DNA of 64,000 bases, taken from NCBI GenBank assembly GCA_964016885.1, contig OZ024742.1, positions 213,714,001 to 213,778,000 of the forward strand, given 5' to 3'. Below are positions 5,089-63,216 of this stretch, piece after piece; positions within the stretch are counted from its first letter, which is position 1, and each line of letters begins with the position of its first letter. The position numbers and the translations under genes are program-made. A model generated the notes under the pieces. It worked only from the letters and a program-made list of their open reading frames with translations, was not told where the DNA came from and ran no database searches. This stretch comes from Eledone cirrhosa. Taxonomy: Eukaryota.

Positions 5089-5173
5089 GCAAAAGTTTTA
5101 TTTAAAATTGTTGGGTTACAACAAGTAAATATTTTATAACCGATATAAAGCACTCGACAAGTTTTTGGAGTAG

Positions 5174-5523: not shown

Positions 5524-5529
<6 letters not shown>
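5174..5529. repeat. near-perfect 356-bp palindrome (172-bp arms, 12-nt loop)
   Basis: 5174-5345 is the reverse complement of 5358-5529 with 2 mismatches seen; arms carry a CTGAAGA...GAAA hammerhead-like motif (5422-5476). Confidence 0.95.
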
Positions 5530-5565
<36 letters not shown>

Positions 5566-5867: not shown

Positions 5868-8800
5868 TACTTGTACTTGTACTTGTGTCGACATTCACCC
5901 TGGACGGGTTGAGGCGGCTTCTTCCCTTGTCCTGACGGCACCCCGAACCATGGCAGCCCACGCACGACGGTCCCGGGCTAGGTCACTGGAGATAGCGAGC
6001 CAGTCACGGTTCCATCGGCGCAGGCCGACCACCTGCGCGACCTGAGAGTTCGGAGAGGTCCTCCTTGATCGTCATTGCCCAGGTCTTCAGCTGCCCGCCA
6101 ACGCGCTTGCGCCAGTTAGGGAGTGGAGGTGAGAGGATACATCGCGGATCAGCTCACCCTCAGGGCGCCGGGCCGCGTGACCAAACCATCTCAAGCGCCG
6201 TTGCAGAAGCACTGAAGGAAGGGGTCGAAGATTCAGGCGAAGACGAAGTCTGGCGGTAGGTATCCGATCAACGCGACGGCAGCGAAGAATGCGGCGGAGA
6301 CTGTCATTGTCAAAGACCTCCAGCCCTCGTTGATCGACTACCATCATAGGCCATGTTTCACAGCCATAGAGGAGGATAGTTCGATAGATTCGCCCTTTGG
6401 TCGCCGAGGTGATCTCTCCTATGTCCCACAGACACCGCTGTAGGCGCCAAAAAGCGGATCTGGCAGCACCTATGCGACGCTTGACCTCGGCTGCACCCTG
6501 TCCCGTTGGAACCACTGTTGAGCCCAGGTAAACGAAGGACTCCACATCCCCCAGGTCCACGCCCTCGAGAAATATTGGCTGCCAGGCATCAGGCGAGACC
6601 AGTGACGTCATGACCTTCGACTTGGCGGCATTGATTCGTAGACCAACAGCGGCTGATGCAGTGTGCACTCTTTCGAGAGCACCTTGTACATCTGTCCCGT
6701 TAGCGCCCATCAGACCGATGTCATCCGCGTAGGCCAGGTCTGTCACCACGACCCCTCTGCCGACCTCTACGCCCGGGTAGTCCCGGAGCGCTGTGTTGAG
6801 AGTGTAGTCAATGGCATAGTTCAAGAGAGTTGGCGATAGCGCACATCCCTGCCGAACACCGGTCCCAACATCGAACGACTCCGTCTCCCCACCATAGACC
6901 CTCACTCGAGCCCGAGTCGACCGGTAGTAGCCCTGTATGAGACGAAGCAGCTTCACTAGGATGCCGTCCGCCTGCATTATACGCCATAGGGCTTCCCGAT
7001 CTACCGAGTCGAAGGCAGCCGCAAAGTCGATGAAGCAGAGGATGGTAGGCTGTTGATGTGCCCACCGTTGTTCCAGGACACGTCGGAGAATGAAGATTTG
7101 ATTAACGCACCCCTTCCCCGGACGGAAGCCGCCCTGAGAAGGATGGGTACGGACATCACGGATGGCCTGGAATCTCTTTAGCAGAAAAATTGTGAAGGTC
7201 TTGGCAGCAACGTCAATTAAACTGATACCCCTGGAGTTGGAACACAGTTTCCTGTCACCCTTTTTGAAGAAGGGTAGGAGAGTTGCATCGCTCCAGTCAC
7301 CAGGGAACCGCTCCGTCGCCCACACCGAGGAGAAGACTCGATGGAGCCAAGCTGCGAAGACATCAGGCTCGGCCTTGTAGACCTCAGCTGGAACGCCATC
7401 CTCGCCCGGCGCCTTGTTGTTCCAGAGATGTGTCAGGACACCACGTACATCCTCGACCGTTGGAGGGGCAGTGCTGCACCCGTAATCTTCTCAGGAAGGC
7501 TGCACGTAGGTTGGCGTGGATGGTGGCGGGTGGTTGAGCAGCTCGGAGAAATAGTCTCGCCATCGAACTAGCCGGTCATTAAGATTGGTAATGACCGCCC
7601 CGTTTCGATCACGGATCGTCTCGCTGATACCCGTACTGCTTCGGCTGGCTCGCTTCACCAGTTGGTAGAGCTTGCGCGAGTCACCACAGGCTGCTGCCCT
7701 CTCCGTCTTCTCCGCAAACTTGCGCCAGTGTGCATTCTGATCGGCCCGAATAGCCCGAGATGTGCGACGTCGGAGATCTCTAAGATTGGGTGCACCCTCG
7801 AGTCGGGCCACTCTCGCCCTCTCCACGAGTTCAAGAGTGCCGCTGGAGATCCAGTCTCGATGGCGTCTTCGGGTCGACCCGAGATGCTCCCTGGCCACCT
7901 CAACCGTCGCCGCCCTGAGCGCGTTCCACTCCTGCTCCGGTTGCTGTTCCACTTCGTTACTCAGCATTTGGTATCGGTTTCGCAGCTCTAGCCGGAAAGT
8001 ATTTCCAGCATCGAGCTTGAGTCGCGAGATGTCGATTCTTTTCTGGCGGTTGGGAGGAGGTTTCGCCCGCATACGCAGACGAAGTGATGCTCGAACAAGA
8101 GTATGGTCTGACCCATGCTCACTGCCCGTATCAGCCCTCCGATACGCACGCGAGTCCATCACTGAGCTGGCCCACCGAGATCTGACCAGGATGTAGTCAA
8201 TCTGATTGGCTGTTCTTCTGTCACTGGATCGCCACGTGACGAGGTGACGGCGAGGATGCTGGAACCGGGTGTTGGTGACAATAAGACGATTGGCATCCGC
8301 GAAGGACACGAGTCGTTCACCATTGTAGATCGGCATAGAACTGCGTTCTGTCCGCCTCGTCCGTATTGAGTGTGGGAGCGTAGACGGCAATTACGCTGAC
8401 GTTGGAGATTTGACCCTTCAATCGAACCAGTGCGAGTCGGTGTGAGATCGGCTGCCACGCCAGCAGAGCCGCTTGCGCGTCGAGGCCGAGCACTACAGCG
8501 ACCCCGTGAAGGCCACTGTTGTCAGTCACGCCACTATGGTACAAGTGGTACGAGATGTCCTCGCCAGGAACTTTGATCAGAAGATGACCAACATCGGGAA
8601 GTCGAACTTCTGAAAGGCAAGCGACACTAACGCAGTACCTGTGCAGAGCCTTCATTGAAAGTGATCGGACGTTCCAGCACGCCACCCTCAATTTCTTCCT
8701 TCGTCTGAAGAGCGGGACTACTGCGGGAGTAGTCTGTAGAGCCATTGCGGTAGGAGCGCTGTTGCTTTGCATTGCGTTCATATCTGGAAGGCAATTCGTA

Positions 8801-9146
8801 TACATAGTTCGTATTTGTAGGATTCATGGAAGAAGTGTCATGGGAGTAGTGAATTCACAAGCGGTCCCCAAAAAACCCGCAAGTATATCCCGAACGAGGG
8901 GAAAAAACGTCCTGTTTGCCGCATATTCTCCACAGACGCAGGGACAGAAACGACCCGAAGCCGCCGGTTACCGGAGCAGACACTTCTTAGATTTTCACCA
9001 GAGCCCCTTTTGCCGGGTTGCGACCCTAATACCGCTGGGTGCCAGACCAATCCGCCTTGGGTGGCCCTACCAGGAACCGAAGTTCCCGACGGCATAGCTC
9101 TGACACTACCCGTTGCCACCGCCCTGCCACGTTGAGGAGGGGTTGG
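5868..9146 (-). mobile_element. apparently full-length RTE-clade LINE (APE endonuclease + RT), frameshifted
   Basis: VACWNVRSL, IAVYAPT, NQIDYIL, FIDFAAAFDSVDR, GVRQGCALSP, LAYADDI; (CAAGTA)n 3' tail; 18-bp TSD 5850-5867 / 9147-9164 with 1 mismatch. Confidence 0.95.
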
Positions 9147-13960: not shown

Positions 13961-15159
13961 TGTGAGAGCAGTACACACTGAACCAAGTGGCTTCATGAAT
14001 TGAAAAATACAACAGTTTTTAAGTCTTCTTAACTAAGTCTGACTGGATTGTTGTTCTATTGTTTTGTTAGTCTCCACTATAAAAGATTATATCAAACCAA
14101 TTATAATGGCAAAGGAACAGTAACACTTGTGTTCTTACCAAGTCTACCTTGCACATCTCTGCTATATCTACTACCAGATAAGTGAACAATGGAGTCCCTA
14201 CATAGTTGCTTGGCCTGTTAGAAATAGCATCCATATTCCTTCAAATCATACCTTATCATCTAATAGTATTACAAGGATTCTCATTAAGAGTACCAGTAAT
14301 GCACTGGGTAATTGCTGGCCTTGTGCCTAAAGTAGAAACAAGTATTACAAGGATTCTCAGTGCCCAAAGACAAATACATTTTTGGGTGTCCTCTCTTTAA
14401 CTAACAAGTATAACAGATAAAAGGAAACTTTGCACGTCTTCACCTTCCTCTTTCTACACACCTCTGTTATAATCTTTAAAAAGGAAGGATGCATTGGACA
14501 ATAGGTCCTGATATATAACAAGATGGAATGGTAATGGCTGGAACACCATTGATCATAGATCTGTCAATCAGAGCTGACCTAAGCAACAAGAACAACAAGC
14601 ATATAAAAATAGACTTGAAAATGGAGAGAATACATACATGGTCCCATAACTTATGAGGGAGTCGTACATGTACTGTATTGACATACTTTGTTTCTAGGGC
14701 AATTTTAAACTTGGTAGAATCCATTCCCTCTTGAGAGCTGAATACAGCAGATTTCTGCCACAGAAGGATTGAGAAAGTGACAGAATGGAAGTGAGAAACA
14801 GATAGAGAGGAAGAATCGCCCCCAGTCTGGCACATTTTATATCAACTTTCAATGGATGAAAGGCAAAGTTGACCTTGGTGGGATTTGAATTGAGAAAGCA
14901 GAGCGCCAAATCAAATGAAAAGCATTTTATCTGACCTTCTAACAACTCTGCCAATTCACCACCTTCAATGAAAAGAATACAAGAGGGTAAAACTATTACA
15001 CTGTACCCCATTGAATTCCTCATTGCATATTGAGATGTGCAGTATGGTCCTTGGTTAGAGTAGACTATTTGATAAATGTACAGCCTATATGGAGTCCAAT
15101 AGTCAGCATTATATATATATATAAATCCTACCCAACCCTCCCACTGTATAGCGGTCGTG

Positions 15160-15350
15160 TAAGTATGACAACACAAAGCATCCAGCCCACACAGTAAATT
15201 GGTCATGTAGGTGTCACAATAAAAAGCTCCCAGCCCACACAGTAAATTGGTCATGTAGGTGTCACAATAAAAAGCTCCCAGCCCACACTGTAAATTGGTC
15301 ATGTAGGTGTCACAATAAAAAGCTCCCAGCCCACACTGTAAAGTGGTCAT
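15160..15350. repeat. 48-bp minisatellite, about 4 copies, inside a SINE-like element
   Basis: Repeated cccagcccacacagtaaattggtcatgtaggtgtcacaataaaaagct. Confidence 0.9.
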
Positions 15351-15887
15351 GTTGGCATCCCAACAACAAGCACCCAGTACTCACAGTAAATAATGTTGGC
15401 ACTAGGAAGGGCATCCAGCTGTAGAAACCAAGCCAAAATCAGTTCTGTATAAGCAAGGCATGGTCACATGACCTAGCATTTCCAAGAAGACAACTCATCT
15501 AACCTATGCTAGTGTGAAAGAATGGCCGTAAAATGGTGATACACATATATAGATTCCAGATCTATCCTGGCTTTTAGCATAGGTACACCATATCCCTGTG
15601 TGTCATAAAAGGTCATTAAAAGGCTTGGAGTCAGGAAGGGTATGGATTTATTGTAAAACATTGTCTCAAATCATCCTGTATACACATAAAATTGATGGTG
15701 ATCATAATATATATATATAAATATAAGAAAAGAATCAGGACCCCGACGGCTGTCGAAACGGCCAGAGCTCAGGCGTTGGGGTCCTGACTCTTATCCTATT
15801 ACCCACTCTACTACCCTAAGTATTGAGTACTCTGGTGCGTTATGGGCCACCTGGTATCTTACCTCACCTTCTTTGTTATATATATGT

Positions 15888-17181: not shown

Positions 17182-18319
17182 TATATATATATCATTAGTA
17201 TTATTATTATGATTATTATTATAATTTCGCAGTATTGGTGGAGCGTCAGACACCATGCTTTATGACACAGAGTTACGATACTTTACGCTCTGAGTTCAAA
17301 TTTCGCTGAGGTTAGCTCTGCCTTTCATCCTTGCGAGGTCAATAAAATAAAGTACCAGTAATACACTGAGGTTGATTTAATCGATGTTCCCCTTCCCCAA
17401 AATTGTTGGCCTCGTGCCTAAAGAATATATATCTATAGTTGACTAAATTGTTGAAGGCAGGTGCTCCATTATATCTATAGTCAACATATCACCCAAAGTA
17501 ATTATTTTAATCTTCTAGTTATTTTATTAATTTGTCTTTGTCAAACCTCTAAATAATGTGACATAAAGGAACACAAACAAACAACACTGGGTTTTAGACC
17601 TCATGAATAAACATACACATACACACACATATATATATACATAACATCATGAAGCTGAATCTATGATAGAAGGCACATGTTCATGGGGCCACACTGTGTG
17701 ATCAAACTCAGAACATGGTTTCAAAGCTAACTTCTTAATCTCATTGTCATATTTGCACCTAATATCCATGTATGTCTTGAATTTCTCTTCTTATGAATAT
17801 GTCTTTAGTTCATCCACTGACCTTCAAATTTTCAAAACCAATGTTATATAAGTGACACCAAATTTCAAAGCAGAAAAAAAAGTAAACAAAAAAAAAAAAG
17901 AAAAAGGGAGGAAAATATTGGTTCCCTAAGAAAAAGGGTCAGTGACAATGAACATTGCAGACTCTGCCAGTCTAGTTTAGATTGAATTTTTTGGTTGATT
18001 AAAGAGAATAAAAATACAGATAGCTGCATTTGGGGTAGAGTTCTCAGTGTAAGATACAGTAAGGATGATAAGAAGAAGACTGGAGGAGAGGTGTAAGAAG
18101 TATAAGAAGGCTATAGTTAAACCCTTTAGCATTCAAACCGGTCATACCCAGTCAGAATCCTCTCACCTCCTTCTGTTCAAACTGGCTGTAACCAGCCACT
18201 CATACTGACATTAAGGTTATTGTTCTCAAAATAAATAACATCAAAATCTCATAGTTTCGATATTATGTGGGGTGAAGCCTTTACTGTGGAAATATAATAG
18301 TATAAACTGAATTATAAAA

Positions 18320-19710
18320 TAATAATGGTTTCTGATTTAGGAACAAGGCCAACAATTTTGGGGGAGGGGAAAGTCGATTAAATCGACCCCAGTGTGTTAC
18401 TGTTATTTTATTTTAACAACCCTGTAACGATGAAAGGTAAAGGTAACCTCAGTGGGATTTGAAATCAGAATGTAAAAGGCTGTAACTATATGCTATGATG
18501 ATAATAATAACGGTTTTTGATTTAGGCACAAGGCCAACAATTTTTGGGGAGGGGAAAGTCAATTAAATTGAACTCCAGTGCATTACTGGTGCCTTATTTT
18601 ATCGACCCTGTAAGGATGAAAGGCAAAGCTAACCTCAGCGGGATTTGAACTCAGAACATAAAGGACCGTAACTATATGCTGAGATAATAATAATAATTGT
18701 TTCTACTTTTGGCACAAGGCCAGCAATTATCCAGTACATTACTGGTATTTTATTTTATCGACCCCCGTAAGGATGAAAGGCAAAGTTAACCTTCGTGGGA
18801 TTTGAACTCAGTCTGTAAAGGGAAGTAACTGTGCTACAAAGCATGGCGTCCAACCCTCTACCGATACTGCCAATCCACCACCCTATATCAAAATAATTCT
18901 TATAATGATAATAATAATTGTTTCTACTTTTTGGCACAAGGCTAGCAATTACCCAGTACATTACTGGTACTTTATTTTATCGACCCCATAAGGATGAAAG
19001 GCAAAGTTAACCTCAGCGGGATTTGAACTCAGAATAGCAAGGGCCGTAACTCTTTGCTGGAAAGCATGGCGTCCGACCCTCTACCGATACTGCCAATCCA
19101 CTGCCCATGATAATAATAATAATGATTTCTAGTATAGGCACAAGGTCAGTAATTTTGGGGGCGGGGAAAGTCGATTAAATTGAACCCAGTGCGTGACCGG
19201 TACTTTATTTTATCGACCCCGTAAGGATGAAAGGCAAAGTTAACCTTAGCGGTATTTGAACTCAGAATATAAAGGGCCGTAACTATATGCTGAGATAATA
19301 ATAATAATAATTGTTTCTACTTTAGGCACAAGGCCAGCAATTACCCAGTGTATTACTGGTACTTTATTTTATCGACCCCGTAAGGATGAAAGGCAAAGTC
19401 AACCTCGGCGGGATTTGAACTCAGATAATGATAATAATAATAATTGTTTCTACTTTTGGCACAAGGCCAGCAATTATCCCAGTGCAATACTGATGCTTTA
19501 TTTTATCAACCCCATAAGACTAGCAATTTGAAGGGGAGGGGAATGTTGATTAAATCGACCCCGATGCATTACTGGTACTTTATTTTATTGATCCTCTCAC
19601 CTCCTTCTGTTCAAACTGGCTGTAACCAGCCACTCATTGGTGGGATTTGAACTCAGAATATAAAGTGTCGCAATTATATGCTGAGATAATAATAATAATG
19701 ATAATAATAA
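18320..19710 (-). repeat. tandem array of full and partial tRNA-SINE units separated by (AAT)n
   Basis: About 8 head-to-tail units of aataattgtttctac...ggatgaaaggcaaag...gggatttgaactcag. Confidence 0.92.
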
Positions 19711-19929: not shown

Positions 19930-20346
19930 TTATCTGTTGTAAGCCAAAAGAAAATAAGCAACGAGTGAACCACCAAATAGGAACAAATAGCAAACGAAGA
20001 ACAGGCTATTGAGCACCATTGCTAATCTCTTCCACTCATCAATTACTTTCTTCTCTGCTTCTGCTTCATTGGTTTTCTTGGTATAGTCATTGGCAATTCT
20101 TCTGATATTAGCAATATCTGTTTCTATTTGTTGGTATTCTGATCTCGGAGATAAACTTTCTGGTAAATCATCCTCACAGAGATGATCTTTGTCAAGTTCT
20201 CCTTGATTCTGACTTATTTTTGGCAGTGAACAATAATTATTGATGCTGAGCTGGAAGCTGTTTTCTTCTGTAATCAAATGTTGAGATCTGTTTTGTTTTA
20301 CCATGTTCTTCAAACAAAGTATTGGTGCAAAGAAATCAAACACAAT
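19930..20346 (-). CDS. nAChR-like subunit terminal exon: MX, intracellular loop, MA helix, M4, stop
   Basis: tttcacag acceptor, phase 0; IVFDFFAPILCL...VIDEWKRLAMVLNSLFFVCYLFLFGGSLVAYFLLAYNR*; EWK.LAMVL matches the nAChR pre-M4 motif. Confidence 0.93.
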   Translation of the reverse strand: MVFDFFAPILCLKNMVKQNRSQHLITEENSFQLSINNYCSLPKISQNQGELDKDHLCEDDLPESLSPRSEYQQIETDIANIRRIANDYTKKTNEAEAEKKVIDEWKRLAMVLNSLFFVCYLFLFGGSLVAYFLLAYNR

Positions 20347-34134: not shown

Positions 34135-37100
34135 GGGCGCACATGTATGAAGACGCACAAGTCTGCGGAGGAAAAAAAGGTTCGTAACTTTAAGCTGTTT
34201 TAAAGTATCATTTTTTGTATTTTCTTTTCGTTAACGAAGCACAAAGTACCCACCTTGGTTCCAAGGGAGGGAGACCTCTCAACATTCGGGCTTTAAGCCC
34301 GAATATTCAGATTTAGTTTTAAAAACTTCGAAAAATGTTTGACCTTGGAAATTTTTGACCTTGAAACGGTAAACAACGTTCAGGTCAAAAGTTCAAAAGC
34401 AGCCACTGTAGATTTCACCACAACTACTACTACTACTACATACATGCCTGTCATCCTCTCCACTGAATGTGAAGGCAAAACTCAAAAGCTACCATCACAA
34501 CCGCTCCCTTCTGTGTTAACAGTAGTATCATCTGAAAACGACATCACCACCACCACCACCACCACCACCGCCACCACCACCACCACCACAACAACAACAA
34601 CTCAGAGCAACAACGACAATAACACCGACAGCTTCAATGTAAACACGGATGGCGGTGGCAACACCAACAACAAACAAAACAACAACACCAATAACAACAG
34701 CAAGAACGACAACACCAACAACAAGAGCAACAGATGCTCCACCTTTGCTGCAGCAGCAGCAAAAATAAAGCGCTTATTGAATATTGATATTAGCGATAAA
34801 GATGAACAGTTGGCCCAGGCGTGGAGGTTAATTAAACGGGAGAAGTCCTGGACAAACTTGACCATCCCGGACGGGGCAATAGCGGCCATGCAAAGGAGGA
34901 CTGTGTACTTTCGATGCATTTCGGTGCAGACGCGCAAAGTAGAACTCGCCAGCCAAGCAGAGGTCGAGGCTGCTTTGAGGTGTATCGAAAGTGACATAGA
35001 GTATAAAGCAAGGGCCAAACAGTTCGGTACCATCTTGGTACTGTTCAAAACCGAAGCCCTTGCTATTAAGCACTCGGTGACCCCCTGCAAAACGGAACGG
35101 ATTATCATGCACCCGTCCTACATGGGTAAAAGGACAGTAAAGGTCCGCATTCCCAGCATCGCACCAGGAATGAACATATGGTGGTTGCTGGGATGCGTAA
35201 TCGAGGAGGGGACAGACACTACCCTCCTGGATATCAAAAGGACAGAGAGAGAAGACTGGTCCGGAATGGAGTTGGAGATTCTTCTCCAAATGAAACCGGA
35301 GGACATGAACAACATCCCGAATTTTGCCCGCCTGCGGGACGGGACAACAATCCAACTAATCAGTGAGGGAAGAAGACCGCACTGCTTCGTCTGCGGGGAA
35401 GCAACGCATCTGCAAGTCTTCTGCCATCAGCGCAAAAATGCAGGGGGTCGCAAACCTCCTTTGTTGCCAACGCCAGTGTCAGCACGGAAAGCTGCACCAC
35501 CACCAAAAACAACACCAACAAAGACACGGACACCAACATCAAAAACAGCTGGATCACCACCAACACCCAAACCAATCCAAGGGGAAAACGAGGAAAGCCC
35601 CCCCCCCCAATTATACACATAGATAACACAAGAAACGCACACACAGACACAGAGACACTCACAGCCACAGACCCTTTGTCTTCCAGCAGCGAAAATGAAG
35701 GAAAACCCAAAAGTGCAAAAAACCCAGAAAACTCACAAAAAAAAAAAAAAAGCCCCAACAAAACACAAAAACACACAACAAAAAATACAGACACCACTAA
35801 TGAAAACACTTCCCCAATAACATCAGCACCAACAGCAACATCGACACCACCCCCACAAACGCAAACAACCTAAACAAAGACAAGAACAAATAAACACACA
35901 AATACCTGAAATTGCAGACACCACACCTACAACAAACACAGACATACTCGAAACAACACCACCAAAACCATCACCACCACAGTCACCAAAACGAAAACAA
36001 ATAAAACCACACCAACAAAATGTTAAAAACTTCGTGCTTGTCAGAAGGGCCAACGATAAACTGATGGCCCTCTTAGCACGAAGCGAGGACATTCAAACAG
36101 AGGGGGAGATCTTTGAAATGAGCACATTTTGCGTCCAGAAGATTTGCTTCTGGTCCGAATGTCACTCGATTCCTTCAAAGAAATTCGGGAGAGCTTTCCT
36201 CAAGACGTGGGAACCCCGAATGTGAAACCCACATCGAGACTTTTAAAGGGGTTCCCAAAAGAAACCGCACCAACCATGGAGGTCGAGCCACCCGACCTTC
36301 ACAAGACCCCGGGAGGTAAGTAAACCTTCCCTCCCTCTTTTAGCTTGCCAACATGGCCATATTAAGAGTAGGAAGTTTAAATGTTCGTGGCCTGGGGTCA
36401 CCCTAGAAGCAGGGTCGCCTGCTCAACGACCTCAGGTCGCTGGAAATGGATGTGATTGCGATCAGCGAGACCAGAATTTCCGACACGCGCGCACTAGCCC
36501 CAATTTTCGACGACTATCAGATCTTGTTCTCTGTTAGCAGGCCGGGAGTGTGAGGTGGCGTGGCAGTGCTGTTTAGGAAAGGACTGGATCTCGATTTTCC
36601 GGGACCCGGACGGTAAGTTGGTGGTCTTGGATGTGAGCAGTAGCGAAGGTGGTGCCTTTAGACTGCTGGCCGTCTACGCCCCTACAGGGGCCGGACGACC
36701 GGACTTCTTTAGGCGCCTGGAGACCTTTCTGGCTACGTCTCACCTTTTACTGTTAGCGGGGGACTGGAATGGCATCTTAGACGCACGCTGGGATTGTCTG
36801 GGAGTAGCTGATAGGAGCGGGGTGTGCAAAAGCCTCAAGCACCTACTCAGCCAGTTCCAACTGTCTGGCAGGAATCGACTAGATTTCCCCAATGCGCCAG
36901 TATGGACATGGACCAACCGAATGGGGTCATCTAGATCGTATATAGACAGGATCTTCATTAGGAAAATAGATAGAAATAGTGTAGGATGCCCACTTTTTAA
37001 AACGGTCGCCTATTCAGATAACAAATTTGTGATCTGTATGGTCGACCTAAATAAGACGCGTAGGTTGGGACCGGGTTACTGGAAGCTGAACATGTCATTT

Positions 37101-37830
37101 CCGGTACGTAAGGCTTACAGAGACCGAGTTAACAATTTAGTTAAGCAAAAGTTGACAAGGGTGATCATCATCAACAGATGGTGGTGGTGGTGGTGGTGGT
37201 GGTGGGGGCTCTCAAAGGAGAGATTAAAGTAACTTCGATAGAGTTCAGCAAAGAACTACTGTTAGAGAAAAATAGAAAGGAGGAGGAGCTGGTAGATAAG
37301 TTAGACGAGGCTATTTTTAGTGGCATTGCAACTGACGTGCTAGCGGCGAGAATGGCATTAGACCATTTCTTCAATGCGAAACACGAAGGCTGCATTGTCA
37401 GAGCTAAGGCGCGTGCGCTGAGAAACGAGGGATCCAAAGCTGTTCGATGGGCCCGCGTGGCAGAGGCGCAGCGTGGTAATAAAACCACGATTCGGTCTCT
37501 GGCGGACCGAGTCGGACACGAGATAAGCGATTCCAAGCGGATGTGTGAGGCCCTTCGCCAGCACTTTGCTCGGTTGTTCGGGGAGAGTGGCGAGTCAGAG
37601 AGAGTAGCGGAATTCAGTCCCTATCTTGACGGCTTGCCGCGCATCGCGAAAGTTGACGCTTAGCGCTGCGAAAGGCCGATTACTTCAGCCGAAATTCAGG
37701 ACGCCCTTGTCGGCTGCATGAGGCGCAAGTTTGGATGGCTTGCCCTACGAGTTTTACGTAAATATGCCAGACTTGTTCTCCGATCTCCTCGAAGCACTCT
37801 ACTGCAACTGGCAGCAGAATGTGAGTATTC
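34135..37830 (+). mobile_element. Tx1/L1-clade LINE, 3'-truncated
   Basis: ORF1 with zinc knuckle; ORF2 ATG at 36353 (VGSLNVRG, AVYAP, LAGDWNG, SYIDRIF, PGYWKLN) with stops; preceded by (TTA)n 34069-34134. Confidence 0.92.
34339..35622 (+). CDS. Tx1-like ORF1 (gag-like); continues via frameshifts to about 36323
   Basis: CFVCGEATHLQVFC (CX2CX4HX4C); clearly homologous to 57512-58678; true start uncertain (first ATG 34444). Confidence 0.8.
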   Translation: MTLEIFDLETVNNVQVKSSKAATVDFTTTTTTTTYMPVILSTECEGKTQKLPSQPLPSVLTVVSSENDITTTTTTTTATTTTTTTTTTQSNNDNNTDSFNVNTDGGGNTNNKQNNNTNNNSKNDNTNNKSNRCSTFAAAAAKIKRLLNIDISDKDEQLAQAWRLIKREKSWTNLTIPDGAIAAMQRRTVYFRCISVQTRKVELASQAEVEAALRCIESDIEYKARAKQFGTILVLFKTEALAIKHSVTPCKTERIIMHPSYMGKRTVKVRIPSIAPGMNIWWLLGCVIEEGTDTTLLDIKRTEREDWSGMELEILLQMKPEDMNNIPNFARLRDGTTIQLISEGRRPHCFVCGEATHLQVFCHQRKNAGGRKPPLLPTPVSARKAAPPPKTTPTKTRTPTSKTAGSPPTPKPIQGENEESPPPQLYT

Positions 37831-38560
37831 AAAACTGAGGCGCTTGCTATCAAGCATTCTATGGTCTCCTGTAATATGGACCAAATAATCATGTACCCAT
37901 CCTACATGGGGAGGAGGACTGTAAGGGACCGTGTTTCCAGCATTCCGCAGGGACTGGACTTATGGTGGCTCCTGGGATACGTGGCAGCAGAGGGCCCTGA
38001 GACTCTCCTCGACATCAAATTTACAAAGAGAGAGAGGTGGTCTGGGGCAGGTTTGGAGATTCTTCTCAAATCAGACTCAAAGACATCAAAAATATCCCAG
38101 ACCATATCAAACTACCAGACGGGCATGAAATCCAGGTAGTCATAGAGGGCAAATGGCCACACTGTTTCGTTTGTGGAGAAGCCACACATCTGCGAGTCTT
38201 TTTCCCCCAGGTGAAAACTGCAAGGGGCCACAAACCTCCATTGCTGCCAAGCCCGGTGATGGGACAAAAGACAACATCAGTAGCAGCACCAGCAACAGTA
38301 AAGGAAACAGCACTACCAGCAACAAAAGAGCAGCTATAACACCAACAAGGACTATTAAAACCACCCAGGAAGTCACCCAAATAAGCCCTCCCTCACTGCA
38401 TCTTTCAAACAAACACTCACAGAACAACACTCACACACCCACTCTCTTCTAGGAGACAGTTCCCAGACATCAGTTCCTCCCCATACCCAAGTGAAGATGA
38501 GGGCAAAGCCCCCAAACCAAAAAAAGCAAAAAAGAAAAGACAAAAAGAAAAAAAATATTG
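37826..38560 (+). mobile_element. second Tx1 ORF1 fragment joined to the truncated ORF2
   Basis: MYPSYMGRRTV...LWWLLG...HCFVCGEATHL, a diverged paralog of 35045-35700. Confidence 0.85.
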
Positions 38561-40958: not shown

Positions 40959-41074
40959 AGCTCGGATTGGTTTTATAATTTTACTTCTGGCATGTGAGTT
41001 TGCTAAGTTAACGATCAAGGCATTCAGAAATATTGATAGAGTTAAAATAGCCAAATTGAAACACAAGTAAATAC
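40959..41074 (-). CDS. nAChR-like subunit exon: M3 and post-M3
   Basis: ttatag acceptor, gct|gtaagt donor; (G)IYLCFNLAILTLSIFLNALIVNLANSHARSKIIKPIRA; phases fit both neighbours. Confidence 0.93.
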
Positions 41075-46796: not shown

Positions 46797-47240
46797 AATT
46801 TGTTTTGCAAGATTTATCTGAAAACGTGTGTTGAAACAGATATTGTTATACTTTGGGAGGGTCATGCTGCCGATAAAAACACACGCAACTGTTGTTTTTT
46901 TACTTCAATTTATTGTATATTTCCGGTTGGTTGGTTCGATAACCGGAAGGTTGTTTATATATTGTCACAGCTCTTTCGTCAAATAAGATGGTGTAGGACA
47001 GAACAAAGGAGAGACACAAAATAAAAACCAAGTCACTGAGGAGGTCACAGAATGTGTGACAAAAGTGCTTTGACAATATATAAACAACCTTCCGGTTATC
47101 GAACCAACCAACCGGAAATGTATAATAAATTGAAGTGAAAACCAACAGTTGCGTGTGTTTTTATAGGCAGCATGACCCTCCCAAAGTATAGCAATATCTG
47201 TTTCAACACACATTTTCAGATAAATCTTGCAAAACAAATT
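46797..47240. repeat. inverted repeat (about 185-bp arms) of a Penelope terminal repeat; degenerate hammerhead at 47032-47074
   Basis: 46797-46981 is approximately the reverse complement of 47056-47240; same family as 1410-1680. Confidence 0.88.
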
Positions 47241-49474: not shown

Positions 49475-49558
49475 CAACATAAGGAAGTTCTTCTGAAGGT
49501 GGTAGAACTGATACGAGATATAATAAAAGAACGAAGAAGGCCATGAACAACCCAAAAC
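49475..49558 (-). CDS. nAChR-like subunit exon: M2 and M2-M3 loop
   Basis: tttag acceptor, g|gtaagt donor, 84 bp, phase 1-1; (G)FGLFMAFFVLLLYLVSVLPPSEELPYV(G). Confidence 0.93.
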
Positions 49559-51008
49559 CTAAATGAAAGAGAAATGAATATAATAATACATAATCACCAT
49601 CCTTATTGTCATTCCTCTTCTTCCTGTTCCTTATCATTTTCATAGTCCTAAAACATCATCACCCCTTTCTATTCTGAGTTGAAATCCAAATGGAGTTAAC
49701 ATAGCCTTTCTTACTTGTGAGAGAGGTATTGGCAGATAAAATAAGTACCAGTCAAATATTGGATCTCGATAGAATTGATTACCTCATGGTCCCTGAGTAG
49801 GTCTGTGCAGTAGGGTTAAGGCTGGGTGTAAAAGGGTGAAGACCCCATTCGGTCACGAATGACCATGGGATTTGTACCTAGAAAATTCTCCTCCAAGGTA
49901 CAGTCCAGACAAGGTTGTTTGTGGAAGACCAGCAGTTGCCCATGCATACAAGCCTCCCCTCTCCACACCAGTGATGTTGTCCAAGGGAAAGGCAAAGGCC
50001 GAAACAGCTTGACACCAGTGACGTCGCAACTCATTTCTACAGCTGAGTCAACTGGAGCAACGTGAAATAAAGTGCCTTGCTCAAGAACACAACGCAAAGC
50101 CCGGTCCAAAAATTGAATTCACCTCCTCACGATTGTAAGCTTAGCGTTCTAACCACTAACCCACACGCCTTCTCATGGCTAGGTGTAGGCATTGCATAAC
50201 TAATGAGATGAATTTGTAGGTTATGCCTCGTCATTCGTGCAATTACATGCAAGTTGTCGGGTTAGTCTGGACTTACACAACAGCAACAACAACCATTTGG
50301 TTATCTAACCACTACGACAACAAAAACAGAAAATCCCAATGGCGCAAGAAGGCTTCTTAACATCTAGGGACTTTGGGCATCCTTAGCTTAACTAATAGAC
50401 ATGGTCGGCCAGAGGAAATGTTGCATCTAATCACCCTGACCACAGAAGAGAATTCATCTCGTCCCTCATTGTGATATGCTTCTGCAACAGCTCCATAACT
50501 ATATAAGTAAAAACAAAAAAAATGTATGTTGTTGTTTATCCTTGGTGAGGCTTTTTCAGCTGATTCGATCTCACGGTCACCTTTTGGACAACACTTCTGG
50601 ACTACCTAAGTCTTGCGAATAAATTTGGACTAATGGAAACTGAGTAGAAGTTTTTCAAATGAATTATGCCTGTAATTCAAATGTTCAGCCTTGTCACATA
50701 CTGTGTCATTAGGCTTGAACACATATCTGTAAATTACTTGATCACATACATATTAAGTTAACGTAGAAAATGATATAGGACCCATCATTATATCGCTGGA
50801 AATGACGAGTTAATGACAGTACAACAGGTAACAGTTACCTGGACATATCACGTCAGAAACAAACATACATACATGTACGTAAAAATAGGACTTTGGTAGT
50901 AACAAGCTGATAACTATTCTAAACATATACATTTTAAGAGAGTGATAACAAAAAGAAAGAATATAATAGTTGACAGCTGAAAATATCCCCGATTTTACTT
51001 TTACTCAC

Positions 51009-51378
51009 CTAATGTGACTTTATCGGACAAATCTGATGGTAGTAAGAAAAGGACGAGGCTGAGGGATGACAGCAGAAAACAAGGCAGCAGGAATGTGTAG
51101 AAAAACACTGTGGCATGACGTGTAAAGTGAAAGTGTATCTTCAGGTTGACATAAGGGACATTACAGCCTATGCATGTATTGAGAACCCTATCTGTAGCGA
51201 CGTGTCCCACCTTCCACAATGGATGTTTGTTAATGTTCCAGGTAGGGATGTCATGTTTGACAAAGTTCAAATCCATATGCTGGATGTCGTAGATCTCGGA
51301 ACCAAGGACGAGTGTACAGATCTGTGTGTCAAACGGGAATAACGTGGTATTTGGACGGCATTGTGCTTGATATTTCGT
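51009..51378 (-). CDS. nAChR-like subunit exon: Cys-loop, loops B/F/C, M1, start of M2
   Basis: ttccacag acceptor, g|gtgagt donor; CRPNTTLFPFDTQIC (C-x13-C with FPFD), pre-M1 Arg, M1 FLLPCFLLSSLSLVLFLLP, SDKVTLG. Confidence 0.96.
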
Positions 51379-52161
51379 CTGTGGAAAGAAAACAAAAATA
51401 GATAGTAATATAAATATAGATAGAAATAAAGTAGTATAGTTAATATGAAGCATTGTGAGATACGTAATAATTGATTTGTAAGGACATCAGAATACCGGAA
51501 CAATACGGCAGAAAGGACAAATGATGACAAATAAAACAAAACAAATGTTTTTTACCCAGTGTGTTTCAATTGCTGCATTGAAACCTAACCTGATACTTCA
51601 TGCATCAAATATCTGTACACATAGAGGGTGTATGGCTCATTTAAAAGTTTGTTTTGCTCTTCACCCTTCACCGGAGAGTAGGGAAAGATGAATATGTAAT
51701 ATACTGGGTGCTGAGGACCAGGTTAATAACACCTTTCTCTATTCCCCGTAGACAGGTGAGAATCTGAAATGATAGGTGTTTCTCACTTCACAGCAATTAA
51801 AATTATTGATATTTTACAAAACATCTTGATTAATCGTTACCGATGCAGACTTTTATTTGTTTTCAGTTTTCTGGACTTTACATTGCATGATTTACGTGAA
51901 TTAGTTACTGGTCTGTTCAAGTGTTCAAACAGAAGTGATTATGGCTGCCATGAGACGATTATAGCAAGAAAAGTAACAACAACAGTATCATCTCTACCAC
52001 TACCACCACCAACAATGACAACAGTACTATCATTACCACCATCAACAGTACACAACTGTTTCAGGTTTGATCTCTATACGTTGGACAAGTGTCTGCTACT
52101 GTAATTTCGAGATGGTTAATGACTTTCTTTTGAAATTGGTAGACGGAATTCATGGGAAATC

Positions 52162-53378: not shown

Positions 53379-56300
53379 TTACCCACCGCATGACCAGAGT
53401 GGCCCACTCACACGGGCCATTCTCGCCACATTCACCCACCTTTCAGCAAATGTATGGAGGGCGGGGGGCAGCACTTCTCTCTCCGCCCTCACCTTCCTTT
53501 CCAAGTGAAACTTGAAAAAGTTGATGAGGGATTGGCCGAAGAGAAAAGTGTCTGTCTTCAGTCCTTTCAACCTCGCCCACCATACAACCTCTTTCGCTAC
53601 TGCCACCAGACAGAGGAAAATTGCCTGCCCTTCCTGGTCAAAAGAAGGCGGCGGGTCGATCTTCACTATGGACTCGGCCGATAGCCGGATCCGTTCTACA
53701 CGCGACAACAGCTGTTCGACATAACTTCACAAGTCAGTAATGCACGGACACTGGACGAGTGCGTGCAGAACGGTTTCGTCGGTCTGCGCGCATCTCGGGC
53801 AGGTCCGTCTGACATCACTTCCGTGCCTGTAGAGTTTATCTCGAACCGGCAGTTCCCCCCGGTAACACTGCCAAGTGAGGGATTTTTGGAAATTATCCAT
53901 CGTCCCCGGCTCGAAAGTCCTCCGGTACACACTGGTTAGTTCGACTTCGTCGACTCCCAGAGCCTCTCCGAGTGCGTCGTCGCACTTGCCCACCACTAAT
54001 CCTCTATAGAACTCGAGAGTGGAAGTTCCACTGACCGCATTGCCCGCCTGGTAGAGGGCAGTGAGTGCCTGGCAACATTCCAGATGCCAGTCACCCAGTC
54101 TCGGTCTCTTCTTGACCCAGGACTGCAACTCAGTCAAAGAAACGAGCTGCGAGAAGGCCCGTCTGACAAACAGCGACCACACCTGTTCACCGTTTAGGCA
54201 GAATATCTGGAGATGCTGCAGCTTCAGCATGCGTCTGCGCATCATTAGCCACGGCATGCCCAGCCCTCCACGTAGAGGGTGCTGGCAGCAGTTGGACCGC
54301 CTCCGCAGCGGAACCTGACCCCTCCACAAGAATTTGAAGAGGAGCCGCTCCAAGATGGCGAGGCGCGAACGGGGGCAAAGGACGACGGTCAGACGGTAGT
54401 AGAAGACGGACGCGATGTACGCGTTCACCACTTCCGCCCGACCTTTCAGTGATAGGTTGCTCCCAGCCCATTTCTGGGTGAGACTGGCTACCCTTCCCCT
54501 CACCTCATCCCAATTCTTATCCACCTGGAGGTCTGGCCCGAACCAAACCCCGAGCAACTTTACCGGTCCGTCCGTCCAGCGCCTAACGACGCTGTTGGAC
54601 GGCATGGACTTGCCTCTCCAGGTGCCGAGTTGCAAGCCCACCGACTTTTCCGGGTTAAGTTTTGCTCTCGTCAACCTTTCATATTCCTCCAATAAGTTGC
54701 CGACCACCTCGATTTCTGAAGTGTCCGACACCATCACGGTGATGTCATCCACATAAGCCGACACAGCCTTTCCACGCCCCGGTTCGAGCGGGATGCCCTG
54801 CAGCAGCTCCAGCTTCCGCAGTAAAGGCTCGAGAGTCAATACGTACAGAAGGGAGGAGAGAGGGCACCATTGACGGACTGATCCGGAGACCTGAAACGGT
54901 TCCGAGAGGTGGCCATTAATTTTGACCACCGAGCAGGTGCAGCTGTGCATCGCAGCGATCCAGCTTCTGAAGACAGGGCCGAAGCCAGCCGCCTTGAGGA
55001 CAGCCTCCAGGTACCGATGGTCGACCCTATCGAATGCTTTCAATTGATCTAAATTGATCAGAGCCCCACCGAAGCCAGGTTTACACCCTACCCTCTCTAT
55101 GATGTATCGCATTAGATGGAGGTTGTCGTGTATGGACCTGGTTGGGATTGCGCAAGTTTGCGCCTCCCCAACCAAATCCCCGACGACAAGCGCCAACCTC
55201 TTCACTAACACCCTGGCCGAAATCTTAAACTCTGTATTGAGCAGAGTTATGGGCCTGAAATTGTCTAATGTGTCCCTCTTGTTCTCGTCTTTCCTTATCA
55301 GCGTCACTACGCCCCGGCTCACAGAACTGGGAATACTCCCGTTTTGCTGCCAGTTGCAGTAGAGAGCTTCGAGGAGATTGGAGAACAAGTCTGGCATATT
55401 TACGTAAAGCTCGTAGGGCAGACCATCCAAACCGGGTGACTTGCGCCTCATGCAGCCGACAAGAGCATCCTGAATCTCGGCTGAAGTAATTGGCTTTTCG
55501 CAGCGCCCAGCGTCAGCCGTCGAGAGTTGCGGCAAGCCATCGAGGTAGGGACTGAAGTCCGCCACCGTCTCTGACCCGCCACTTCCCCCGAACAACCGAG
55601 AAAAATGTTGGCGAAAGGCCTCACATATCCGCTTGGAATCGCTCAGCTCGTGTCCGTCTCGGTCCGTCAAAGACCGAATAGTGGTTTTATTACCACGCTG
55701 CGCCTCTGCCACGTGGGCCCATCGAACAGCTTTGGTTCCCTCATTTCTCAGAACACGCGCCTTACCTCTGACAATGCAACCTTCGTGTTTCGCATTGAAG
55801 AAATGGTCTAATGCCATTCCCGCCACTAGCACGTCAGTTACAATGTCACTACCAATAGCCTCGTCTAACTTATCTACCAACTCACCCTCCTTTCTATTTT
55901 TCTCTAACGCTACTTCTTTGCTAAATTCTATCGACATTACTCTCATCTCTCTTTTGATAGCCCCCCCCCCCACCATCTATTGTTGACGACTCCCCCTGTC
56001 AACCTTTTCTTAACTAAATTGTTGACCTGGTCCCTGTAAGCCTTACGTGTCGGCTAATGTTTAGCTTCCAGTAACCAGGTCTTAACCTACGTGTCTTATC
56101 TAGGTCGACCATACAGATCACAAACTTGTGATCTGAATAGGCGACCGTTTTAAAACGTGGACAGCTTACACTATTTCTGTCTATTTTCCTAATGAATATC
56201 CTGTCTATATACGATCTAGATGACCCTATACGGTTAGTCCAGGTCCACACTGGCGCATTAGGGAAATCTAGTCGGTACCTGTCCGACAGTTAGAACTGGC

Positions 56301-56806
56301 TGATCAGGTTCTTGAGGCTTTTGCACCCCCCTCCTATCGGATACTCCCACACAGTCCCAGTGTGCGTCTAAGATGCCGTTCCAGTCCCCCGCTAACAGTA
56401 AAGGGCGAGACGCACCCAGAAAGGCTTCCAGGCGTCTAAAGAAGTCCGGCCGTCCTGCCCCAGTAGGGGCATAGACGGCCAGCAGTCTAAAGGCACCACC
56501 TTCGTTATTGTTCACGTCCAAGACCACCAACTTCCCGTCCGTGTCCCGGACGATCTACCTTACCTCGAGATCCAGGCCTTTCCTAAACAGCACTGCCACC
56601 CCGCATCCCATTCCCGGCCGGCTAACAGATGCAAAGATCTGATAGTCGTCGAAAATGGGGGATAGTGCGCGCGTGTCGGAAATCCTGGTCTCGCTGACGG
56701 CAATTACATCCATTTCTAGAGACCTGAGGTCGTTGAGCAGGTGACCCTGTTTCCAGGACAATCCCAGGCCTCGGACATTTAAACTTCCTACTGTTAATAC
56801 GGCCAT
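53379..56806 (-). pseudogene. Tx1-like ORF2 (APE + RT + CCHC) broken by a few frameshifts; longest piece 53727-55976
   Basis: VGSLNVRGL, KSPGLDGLP, NFRPITLLN, KAFDRVDH, SAYVDDIT, CPRC...ETVLHALVQC. Confidence 0.93.
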
Positions 56807-57511
56807 GTTGGCAGGTTAAAAAGAGAGAGAGAAAAGGTTTACTTACCTTCCGGCTCTTGTGTAGGTCGGGTTGTTCGACCTCCATAGTAGGTGGGGTTTC
56901 TTTTGGGAACCCCTTTAAAAGTCTTGAAGTGGGTTTTACGTTCGGGGTTTCAACGTCCCGAGGAAAGCTGTCTCGTATCTCTTTGTATAAATCGAGCGTC
57001 ATTCGCACTAGAAACAAATCTTCCGGCACACGAAATGTGCTCGATTTAAACATTTCACCCTCTTTTTGTATATTTTCACTTCGTGCTACGAGGGCCATCA
57101 GTTCCTTGTTGGCCCTCCTGACGAGCACGAAGTTTTGTATGTTTTGTTGGTGTGATTTTATTTGTTTGCGTGACTGTGGTGGTGATGGTTTTGGTGGTGT
57201 TGTTTCGGTTGTGTCTGTGTTTGTTGTGAGTGCGGTGTTAGGAGTGCGGTGGTTTCAGATGTTTGTGTGTGTATTTGTTCTGTTTAGGTTGTTTGCGTTT
57301 GGGGGATTCTGGTGATGGTGATGGTGGTGTTGATGTTGGTGTTATTGGAGAGATGTTTGCGTGGGTGGTGTCTGCATATTTATTGTGGTTGATTTTGTGC
57401 TTTGTTGAGTTTTTTTTTCCTTTTTGTGTTTCCATTTTTGTATTTTGGGGGATTTTGGTTTTCTCTCATCTTCACTACTGGTAGATGAGTGGTCTGTGTC
57501 TGTAAGTGTGT

Positions 57512-58678
57512 TTATGTTTTTGTTGGTGTGTGTATTTTTTGGGGGGGAGGGGGAATTTGACAACTTTCCTCGTTTCCCCACTGGGTGGTCAATGTTGGTG
57601 GTGGTCTTTCTATTGGTGTTGTTGTTGGTGGTTTTGCCGGTGCTGGTGTTGTTTGTGGTCCTCGCCCCGGCGTCGGCAGCAGTGGAGCCTTTCGACCCCT
57701 TGCATCTTTCAGCAGTTGGGGCAGACGGCTCGCAAATGGTTTTTTTTCCCCACAAACAAAACAATGCTGCCTTTTGCCCTCGGTCATAATATGAATGACC
57801 ATCCCATTCTGAAGGCGGATGTGGTCCGGGATTGTCTTCACATTCTCCGGCCTTATCTGGAGAAGGATCTCCAGTTCAACCCCGGACCCGTCCTCTCTGG
57901 CCGTTCTGGTCACTTCTATAGGGACTGTATCCGTCCCCTCCACAATCACACATCCCAGAAGCCACCACATGTCAAGTCCTGGTGGGATTCTGGGAATGCG
58001 GAGACGGGCCGTTCTTTTTCCCATGTGGAAGGGGTACATTATGACCTTGCTGGTTTTGCAAGGAGTCATAGCGTGTTTCATAGCGAGGGCTTCTGACTTG
58101 AACAGCACCGAAATGGTGCCGTACTGTCTGCCCCTCGCTACGTATTCAGTGTCTTCTCTGATGCACCTCAACGCGACTTCGACATCTGCTTGTGGGATTA
58201 AAGCTGCCCTTTTGGTTTGAGCTGAGATGCATCTATAACGCACCGTTCTGCGCTCCACTGCCTCAATAGCTTCTACCGGGACAGTTAAGTTGGCCCAGGT
58301 TTGCTCTTGCTTGATGAGCTTCCATGCCTGGGTCAACTGTTCATCTTTGTCTGAAGGGTCCATGTTGAAGCATGGCCTCTTTTTTGCTGCTGCCGAAGCG
58401 AAAGTGTTCTTCTTGTTGTCGTTGGAGGTGTTGTTGTTGTTGTCGTTGTTCTTGTTGGTGTTGTTGTTATCACTGTCGCTGTTATCATTGTTGTCTTTGG
58501 TGCCACCGTTGTTCTCGGTGCAGTTAGTATTGTTGCTGTTGCTGTTGTCGCTATTTGTTTTCATGTTAGTGATGTTGATATTGTTGTTGCATTTGTCATT
58601 TTTTCTGTTCTCTGTATTTTCGTTGTCGCTGTTACTGTTATTTTTTTTCAAAATTAGAGTTCTCAGTGTTGTTATCAT
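57512..58678 (-). CDS. Tx1-like ORF1, Asn-rich N-terminus; frameshifted at the zinc knuckle, continues to about 56840
   Basis: TFASAAAKK...DKDEQLTQAWKLIK...WWLLGCVI...HCFVCGE. Confidence 0.8.
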   Translation of the reverse strand: MITTLRTLILKKNNSNSDNENTENRKNDKCNNNINITNMKTNSDNSNSNNTNCTENNGGTKDNNDNSDSDNNNTNKNNDNNNNTSNDNKKNTFASAAAKKRPCFNMDPSDKDEQLTQAWKLIKQEQTWANLTVPVEAIEAVERRTVRYRCISAQTKRAALIPQADVEVALRCIREDTEYVARGRQYGTISVLFKSEALAMKHAMTPCKTSKVIMYPFHMGKRTARLRIPRIPPGLDMWWLLGCVIVEGTDTVPIEVTRTAREDGSGVELEILLQIRPENVKTIPDHIRLQNGMVIHIMTEGKRQHCFVCGEKKPFASRLPQLLKDARGRKAPLLPTPGRGPQTTPAPAKPPTTTPIERPPPTLTTQWGNEESCQIPPPPQKIHTPTKT

Positions 58679-59017
58679 TGGTCTCTTTGTTTACATTGTT
58701 TGTGGTGGTGTTTGTTGTATCAATTTCTGTTAATTTCGCCGTAGCGCTCCTCTCAACTTCTACGTCGTTGTCGCACGACAGCAGACATATCGCTGGGGGC
58801 GTGACTCAGCCATGTTTTTTTTTTCTCGATAATTTTTTAAAATGTAAAAAAGTTCAAATATTTGGGCCAAAAGGCCCAAATATTATTCTTTCCCCTTCAC
58901 AGGGAAAAGTCCAAGGGCTTGTATGCCTTACACAACAACAAAAATTTCAATAAATTAGTTTTGACAGGTAAATAAGTGAACTTACGGGAGTGAGCAAAAA
59001 GACGTCCGTTCAGACTC

Positions 59018-59226: not shown

Positions 59227-59261
<35 letters not shown>

Positions 59262-59985
59262 TGTTTCTACTTTAAGCACAAGGCCAGCAATTACCCAGTG
59301 CATTACTGGTACTTTATTTTATCGACCCCGTAAGGATGAAAGGCAAAGTCAACCTCAGCGGGATTTAATAATAATAATAATTGTTTCTACTTTAGGCACA
59401 AGGCCAGCAATTACCCAGTGCATTACTGGTACTTTATTTTATCGACCCCGTAAGGATGAAAGGCAAAGTCAACCTCAGCGGGATTTAATAATAATAATAA
59501 TTGTTTCTACTTTAGGCACAAGGCCAGCAATTACCCAGTGCATTACTGGTACTTTATTTTATCGACCCCGTAAGGATGAAAGGCAAAGTCAACCTCGGCG
59601 GGATTTGAACTCAGATCGTAAAGGGACGTAACTATGCTGGAAAGCATGGCGTCCGACCCTCTACCGATACTGCCAATCCACAACAATAATTGTTTCTAGT
59701 TTTCGCACAAGGCCAGCAATTATCCCCATAAAGGGCCGTAACTCTTTGCTGCAAAGCATGGCGTTCGACCCTCTACCGATAGGTACAAGGCCAGCAATAT
59801 GGGGGAGGTGAAAGTCGATTTAATCAATCCCAGTTCGATACCGGTACTTTATTTTATTGACCGCGTAAGGATGAAAGGCAAAGCTAACATCAGCGGGATT
59901 TGAACTGAGAATGTAAAGGACCGTAATTATATGCCACAAAGCATACTGTACGACGTCCTACTGGTTACTGCCAATACACTGCGTT
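59018..59985 (-). repeat. tandem SINE array including three near-identical 120-bp units (about 59247-59606)
   Basis: Lines beginning 59281, 59401 and 59521 are identical; period 120 bp. Confidence 0.95.
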
Positions 59986-63137: not shown

Positions 63138-63216
63138 CATAGGTACCCACAACACATGCCCATCATGTGATAACATAGTGCGCACAAAAGACCGCTTATA
63201 TCCTGGCTCATTTGCC
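63138..63216 (-). CDS. nAChR-like Cys-loop channel subunit, first visible exon (end of loop A through loop E); 5' exons outside window
   Basis: tttcag|g acceptor, atg|gtaaga donor; reads ANEPGYKRSFVRTMLSHDGHVLWVPM, matching the nAChR 'NAD...G.V.W.P' region; phase-0 join to next exon. Confidence 0.88.

Follow-up and report, generated by a model that had tools for sequence, protein, structure and literature searches.

Acetylcholine recognition by nicotinic receptors needs TrpB and the aromatic box, and TrpB was reported to be absolutely required in alpha7 (PMC4006026). Three further residues, Lys145, Tyr190 and Asp200, couple binding to gating (PMC2266616). Within this class, the Pro-Ala-Lys (PAK) motif is the mark of AChRB (preprint 2025.04.02.646353; PMC4055736), a group of chloride channels gated by acetylcholine to which octopus AChRB1, Lymnaea AChR B and Schistosoma SmACC belong. 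For the octopus PAK subunits AChRB2 and AChRB3 no homomeric current was reported, and the same source describes the screening of 41 O. vulgaris channels against 18 ligands and provides, with DopC1, a cephalopod precedent for nicotinic-like channels with other ligands (preprint 2025.04.02.646353). Two uncharacterised cephalopod venom-gland groups, termed "PSG unknown 4 and 5", were placed as sister to AChRB (preprint 10.1101/2025.06.15.659772). The chemotactile receptors (CRs), represented by CRT1 and CRB1, are nicotinic-derived channels which have lost the acetylcholine residues and possess a hydrophobic pocket (PMC11526382, preprint 2025.03.03.641191); in octopus they form a tandem cluster on chromosome 15 of O. 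bimaculoides and are expressed in suckers (PMC9068888). Divergent pockets are reported to be common in lophotrochozoan nicotinic subunits (PMC6896357, PMC13174522, Alpo4 PMC10338036). For instance, the complete principal site survives in only 13 of 33 alpha subunits of the oyster (PMC6896357), and many divergent subunits are silent as homomers, Alpo4 among them (PMC10338036). The zinc-activated channel (ZAC) is described as a metal-activated Cys-loop channel (PMC11536092).

The gene considered here lies in a 64-kb window of the Eledone cirrhosa genome, the window being the whole stretch of DNA that was analysed (64,000 nucleotides). Translation of the minus strand at 51007-51378 gave the middle portion of a subunit of the Cys-loop receptor type, and tblastn with the orthologues located five coding exons in the window, all on the minus strand, with AG/GT ends in 5/5 and a frame continuous to the stop codon. 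The first is a 79-bp exon (63138-63216) for the end of loop A and loop E (ANEPGYKRSF...WVPM), identical to O. bimaculoides at 18/26 residues. It is followed by the 370-bp exon (51009-51378) carrying the Cys loop, loops B, F and C, the pre-M1 segment, M1 and the M1-M2 linker, which matched PF02931 with an E value of 4.5e-10 and is identical to XP_014777761.1 at 94/123 residues. An 84-bp exon (49475-49558) encodes M2 (FGLFMAFFVLLL, Met at 9') and the M2-M3 loop, a 116-bp exon (40959-41074) encodes M3 and the start of the intracellular loop, and the last coding exon (19930-20346) supplies the intracellular loop, M4 and the stop, with 119/135 residues identical to O. bimaculoides. Positions in and before M2 are given in prime numbering (-1', 9' and 17'). 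The 5' exons for the signal peptide and loops D and A fall past the window end, and loops A and D are known from the orthologues. PF02931 was detected in the window exon and both PF02931 and PF02932 in the Argonauta orthologue, so that the PF02931 domain with its C-x13-C loop and the four transmembrane helices (PF02932) characteristic of a Cys-loop channel subunit are all present.

A further exon, suspected near 51653-51765, was discarded because no orthologue matched it, and tblastn with the orthologues found no second receptor gene in the 64-kb window. As to expression, no RNA run was listed as carrying the sequence. One of four public runs (X4, the kind of which is not on record) gave low-depth contigs on two exons with ends diverging from the intron, and left unique intron bins without cover; this resembles spliced RNA, yet no joint across the intron was listed. 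The intron between the 79-bp and 370-bp exons is in phase 0. In vertebrate alpha7 the intron lies one base further on, behind an 80-bp exon, and the PAK-type fragments P0088, P0146 and P0073 look like single exons covering the equivalents of both pieces; the phase-0 intron may have been gained, or may have slid by one base.

The introns carry LINE-type and other repeats. Two diverged LINE-type copies lie in opposite orientation at 53727-58690 (minus strand) and 34297-38258 (plus strand), 78% identical over 3.2 kb, with RVT_1 and zf-RVT domains recognized within 53730-55976. Downstream of the gene lies another LINE-type element (6087-8823, minus strand; RVT_1 E 1.3e-29), which is GC-rich relative to the background. 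In the intron that follows the 370-bp exon, positions 49840-50110 hold a very high-copy short repeat, for which the summed contig depth reached about 1e6 versus 5 in unique DNA. Tandem arrays were found at 59246-59606, 18314-19292 and 15153-15391 with periods of 120, 186-233 and 48, respectively, the first two sharing sequence, and self-complementary stretches at 5171-5532 (96% over 362 bp) and 46797-47240 (83% over 454 bp).

The initial annotation of this DNA, made from the letters alone, had described a rebuilt ligand pocket in the 370-bp exon, and minus-strand translation agreed with it in every residue named. Loop B reads LGSEIYD with Glu (GAG, 51295-51297) at the TrpB position, and loop C reads NTCIGCNVPY with cysteines at 51172-51174 (TGC) and 51163-51165 (TGT), Gly at 51166-51168 (GGC) and Tyr at 51151-51153. 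The register assumed there, in which Tyr190 becomes Cys, Cys192 becomes Gly and Cys193 and Tyr198 are kept, is sound, since the segment that runs from the beta9 Trp to TyrC2 was 22 residues long in 9/9 proteins checked, including an alpha7-like sequence and three of PAK type; there is also no indel in the orthologues. The spacing of loop C is that of the alpha7/neuronal type (Y188-x-C190-C191-x-x-P-Y195 in alpha7 numbering), and the top solved-structure matches of the exon were alpha7 chains, with an ungapped alignment through loop C. As to the hallmarks of a nicotinic alpha subunit, YxCC is replaced by C-I-G-C (51163-51174; Cys at TyrC1, Gly at the first vicinal Cys, the second vicinal Cys kept) and TrpB is missing, while TyrC2 (51151-51153) is present and is the only aromatic-box residue unchanged.

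No letter difference was listed for the exon (51009-51378) in the four public runs, which represent two samples of one study and possibly include the assembly's own source. Judged from its recurrence in the orthologues of O. bimaculoides, O. sinensis, O. vulgaris and Argonauta, the C-x-G-C-x-x-P-Y arrangement is more than chance or sequencing error. In total, 142 of the best 150 of 1242 representatives could be scored for loop C cysteines, multi-domain proteins being counted by their first domain only: 110 had CC, 27 had no Cys, 4 were of other kinds, and the sole CxxC was the orthologue itself. In the same best 150, the TrpB position held Trp in 128 and Glu in 2. A separate and apparently independent case of both kinds of change was seen in an unrelated subunit from the nemertean Lineus longissimus (P0065/P0195, XP_064645403.1), where Glu takes the TrpB position (GSEHY) and the two loop C cysteines are non-vicinal (C-x6-C).

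Full-length orthologues were identified in O. bimaculoides (XP_014777761.1), O. sinensis (XP_029645319.2), O. vulgaris (CAI9716434.1) and Argonauta hians (GAB1597573.1), under automatic names only ("alpha-5-like", "alpha-10-like"). They share with the window gene the C-x-G-C-x-x-P-Y loop C, the loss of TrpB, the M2 sequence and the intracellular loop, with 67-76% identity to the window exon; Eledone is nearer to Octopus (94/123 identical residues) than to Argonauta (83/123). No paper in the literature searched cites these accessions in its main text, and no match was found in a supplement of PMC9068888; published trees almost certainly include the gene as a leaf without a name.

Loop C reads C-[A/S/V/I]-G-C-[D/N]-[V/A]-P-Y in all orthologues, with C, G, C, P and Y invariant in 4/4 octopod lineages compared, where only 7/20 positions are invariant across exon residues 57-76 (beta9 to loop C). 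The conservation of CxxC, which the initial annotation had proposed to check across cephalopods, was thus found in every lineage compared. That of the Glu was not: loop B reads GSEIY in the three Octopus species and the window and GSAIY in Argonauta, and a distant relative, P0010, has Ala as well. Such variation had been named in advance as evidence against the pocket model, and Glu as a functional replacement is not supported. The loss of TrpB is conserved, the residue replacing it is not, and the loop B Glu is probably incidental.

The pocket is rebuilt more widely than the two lost aromatic-box residues first claimed. Both of these losses, TrpB and TyrC1, are real; in addition, alignment of the orthologues gave Leu for the loop D Trp and Phe for the loop A Tyr, in exons outside the window. 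Mapped on an alpha7-like sequence, the gating triad K145/Y190/D200 (PMC2266616) becomes Val/Cys/Asn in the window protein, with Val at 51307-51309 (Ile in the orthologues) and Asn at 51145-51147 (Asn in all orthologues). Set against vertebrate alpha7 and muscle alpha1, the subunit has the same fold, Cys loop, loop C length, TyrC2 and pre-M1 Arg, whereas four of the five aromatic-box positions are changed (one conservatively), Met stands at 9', and the vicinal disulfide and gating triad are gone. As only TyrC2 is unchanged, neither face is able, on the residues present, to build a standard acetylcholine site. The claim that acetylcholine binding at the principal face is unlikely was therefore strengthened by the loss of K145 and D200 and by the loop D Trp and loop A Tyr changes of the orthologues. 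The cavity lining is mostly aliphatic, consisting of Leu, Ile, Val, Met, Phe and one Tyr. The coupling interface is kept, namely the Cys loop C-x13-C with FPFD (51316-51360), the pre-M1 Arg (51118-51120, the invariant alignment column R230) and the M2-M3 Pro. Three of the new codons lie one base from the presumed earlier residue (TGC from Tyr, GGC from Cys, GAG from Ala). RNA editing was considered as a route back to a normal site and rejected, as A-to-I changes cannot restore Trp, Tyr or Cys.

The ancestry of the subunit was traced through three Logan proteins, P0010, P0110 and P0054, with 29-35% identity and a homologous intracellular loop. Together with the octopod gene they formed a clade of 5 rows with support of 100/100, and this clade grouped with 8 PAK rows against 12 outgroup rows, again at 100/100, in a tree with long branches, of 25 rows chosen for length and relevance from about 195, in which the orthologues stand in for the split window protein and the AChRB-type rows were labelled by the PAK motif, not by accession match. 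The M2 motif xFxAFF was found in 11/150 representatives (6 PAK, 1 QHK and 4 clade members) and in 0/55 GEK/LLS-type rows, with 51 rows giving no match and 33 truncated or other; its distribution is an independent marker that agrees with the grouping in the tree. By tree and motif alike, common ancestry with the PAK (AChRB-type) subunits is indicated; nesting inside the PAK group received support of 87/92, and PAK monophyly was not rejected (p-AU 0.328). While the 100/100 grouping and xFxAFF are common to AChRB and the window gene, the lineage of the latter has S/A-D-K instead of P-A-K, evolves much faster, and is without TrpB, TyrC1, the vicinal CC, TrpD and K145/D200.

The motif before M2 is S-D-K in the window (51019-51027, minus strand), with Asp at -1', and A-D-K in the orthologues, where AChRB-type relatives have P-A-K; the role of this position is taken from PMC4055736. 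All clade members carry Asp or Glu at -1', an acidic residue that would be a cation signature, its acidic state being either a reversion or retained. The initial annotation, right about the residues of the subunit, had missed both its AChRB-type ancestry and this acidic -1' residue. Elsewhere in M2, Met occupies the 9' gate (49542-49544, minus strand) and Tyr the 17' position, both conserved in the orthologues, and in PAK relatives the 9' residue is Val or Ile; the M2 gate may be unusual. The linkers of P0110, P0054 and P0010 are SEK or PEK, and P0110, with its Trp, TyrA and YACC intact, is a candidate for a cation channel that is gated by acetylcholine and descends from the AChRB type.

Trp and YxCC are still found together in P0110 and P0054, Ala stands beside YPCC in P0010, and the octopod gene has neither Trp nor YxCC, which suggests that Trp and then YxCC were lost stepwise in the clade. 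The order of the steps is tentative because P0010 comes out as sister of the octopod gene with support of only 67/9. A clade that began with a cholinergic site, as P0110 and P0054 imply, could have left a residual one, a low-affinity site for acetylcholine or choline in which Glu or backbone carbonyls, Phe93 and Tyr198 would replace the aromatics. TyrC2, the aromatic residue of loop A and the anionic nature of Glu fit such a site. It is nevertheless improbable, given that Argonauta has Ala instead of Glu, that alpha7 absolutely requires TrpB (PMC4006026), and that all three triad residues and TrpD are changed.

In the AlphaFold model of the Argonauta orthologue (mean pLDDT 75.7, 18-row alignment), the loop C cysteines C212 and C215 lie in the turn between strands 198-211 and 218-230. 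The extracellular domain of this protein contains four cysteines only, two of the Cys loop and two of loop C. An ordinary structural i,i+3 disulfide at the tip of the beta9-beta10 hairpin, with the Gly permitting a tight turn, would be the simplest reading; it is simpler than a redox or metal function since no extracellular Cys exists beyond the Cys loop and the loop C pair. Where an extracellular protein has such a Cys pair and no further free Cys, oxidation of the pair is to be expected in the course of secretion.

The initial annotation had considered a redox- or metal-sensitive loop C plausible, with CxxC serving as a thiol switch or a Zn/Cu site, possibly together with the loop B Glu, to gate or tune the channel. 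This now appears decidedly doubtful. The motif is indeed conserved, rare (1/142 scorable among the best 150 of 1242 representatives) and located on the mobile loop C, ZAC provides a precedent (PMC11536092), and His is invariant at orthologue positions 177, 195, 227 and 231. Nevertheless, the proposed acidic ligand is missing in Argonauta, His 210 adjoining the motif is Asn in the other three lineages, and identity to ZAC is 18%. DTT sensitivity would be nothing new, as the ordinary vicinal disulfide is already the DTT-reducible one (PMC8777805). No report of a non-vicinal loop C disulfide was found in the literature searched.

Among described cephalopod groups, PSG unknown 4 and 5 resemble the window gene in tree position, cephalopod origin and uncharacterised state, and the gene may belong to them, the match being by tree position alone. 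The CRs are likely its functional analogue, and by that analogy the subunit may work as they do, through a hydrophobic pocket. It is probably not a CR itself. The window gene has at least five coding exons, whereas octopus CRs are described as intronless (O. bimaculoides; unverified in other cephalopods; PMC13174522), the identity by structural alignment is 18% with CRB1 (8eiz) and 20% with CRT1 (9e6b) versus 24-27% with vertebrate nicotinic subunits, and the subunit groups with PAK proteins in trees that were built without CR or ZAC rows. Neither CRT1 nor CRB1 was among the best 60 sequence matches of the exon, P0001, P0110 or P0010, or among the Foldseek rows listed, in all of which vertebrate entries fill the lists. 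For comparison with the CR cluster of O. bimaculoides, the orthologue sits on a 199.9-Mb contig.

Pocket conservation across octopods does not exceed background: the positions are identical at 10/11 sites between O. bimaculoides and Argonauta against a background identity of 76%, which is not significant (p = 0.22, sites chosen post hoc). Divergence between the two is similar in the extracellular part (144/189, 76%) and in the intracellular part plus M4 (112/149, 75%), while over the same split the extracellular identity of two PAK paralogues is 187/189 and 176/189 (93-99%). Given this fast divergence of the whole protein, relaxed constraint fits as well. M1-M3 are well kept, with 84/91 residues (92%) identical between Octopus and Argonauta. 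A decaying gene, whose pocket drifted without function, would also diverge faster than the PAK paralogues; yet the frame is open with GT-AG ends in 5/5 window exons, full-length orthologues exist in four species and M1-M3 stay 92% identical to Argonauta, which makes decay very hard to credit.

Three word-index searches gave one close cluster per lineage, and one representative was obtained at E<=1e-30. No family expansion was seen in the word-index and representative searches, which miss relatives, and the gene appears to be single-copy. A profile search started from the clade alignment added no member, from squid or cuttlefish either, but it also missed the known P0010 and P0110, and the protein atlas gave matches to generic nicotinic clusters only. 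The O. sinensis orthologue and one PAK paralogue are on contigs of equal size (213,406,131), probably one chromosome. The apparent lack of expansion in these searches is unlike a sensory family and weighs against the subunit being a ligand-gated orphan.

The main alternative, possible though less probable than the reading preferred below, is an accessory subunit, which would bind no ligand at either face and co-assemble with AChRB-type or P0110-type subunits, the acidic -1' residue altering selectivity or kinetics and CxxC acting as a structural brace. The principal face (TrpB, TyrC1), the complementary face (TrpD) and the gating relay are all lost while M1-M3 are kept (84/91), the gene appears single-copy, and AChRB2 and AChRB3, without homomeric current, may need partners (preprint 2025.04.02.646353). 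However, a partner of AChRB2/3 should supply TrpD, which this subunit does not have, and the new pocket residues are mostly alike across octopods, though not significantly so. The fast divergence, the background-level pocket conservation and the missing expansion fit an accessory role about as well as they fit an orphan receptor.

The reading we prefer, with a probability of roughly 0.45, is that of an intact octopod Cys-loop subunit, likely an acetylcholine-insensitive orphan of cation type, which would be gated by another, probably bulky hydrophobic ligand and carry an ordinary i,i+3 disulfide in loop C. TrpB would have been lost first, to the Ala held in common with P0010, which still has YPCC, and Ala would later have become Glu by a one-base step in the lineage of Octopus and the window genome. 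The changes of Tyr190 to Cys and Cys192 to Gly, one base each, would have shifted the disulfide from the vicinal pair to a C-x-G-C hairpin turn, with loop C still braced. With TrpB, TrpD, TyrC1 and the K145/Y190/D200 relay gone, the usual hold on a quaternary ammonium would be impossible, and the cavity would be larger, lined by the aliphatic residues, Phe and single Tyr noted above. Gating should still be possible through FPFD, the Arg before M1 and the M2-M3 Pro, all of them retained, and an Asp at -1' instead of Pro-Ala would favour cations. A bolder extension, speculative and rather unlikely on present sequence evidence, is a second octopod chemosensory-type channel independent of the CRs, which would have arisen from the chloride AChRB lineage, regained an acidic filter, emptied both pocket faces and moved its disulfide to C-x-G-C, and which may be an orphan venom-gland channel for a non-classical ligand.

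Taken by its sequence, the gene is a real, conserved and unusual variant of a known receptor class. The weight of the finding is limited in that molluscan nicotinic subunits commonly lose binding residues; the unusual parts are CxxC and the ancestry. Neither a C-x-G-C loop C nor the joint occurrence of such a loop with AChRB-type ancestry and an acidic filter was found in the literature searched, which did not extend to the primary papers on CRs or to several supplements. It is the vicinal disulfide that marks a nicotinic subunit as alpha, and here two single-base changes appear to re-pair it across a hairpin in an arrangement kept by octopods. The clade forms a natural series in the dismantling of the acetylcholine site, from Trp with YxCC (P0110) through the loss of Trp (P0010) to the loss of both (the octopod gene), and is suited to asking whether an anion-selective channel can turn back into a cation-selective one, with the octopod gene itself now named as a concrete orphan for ligand screening.
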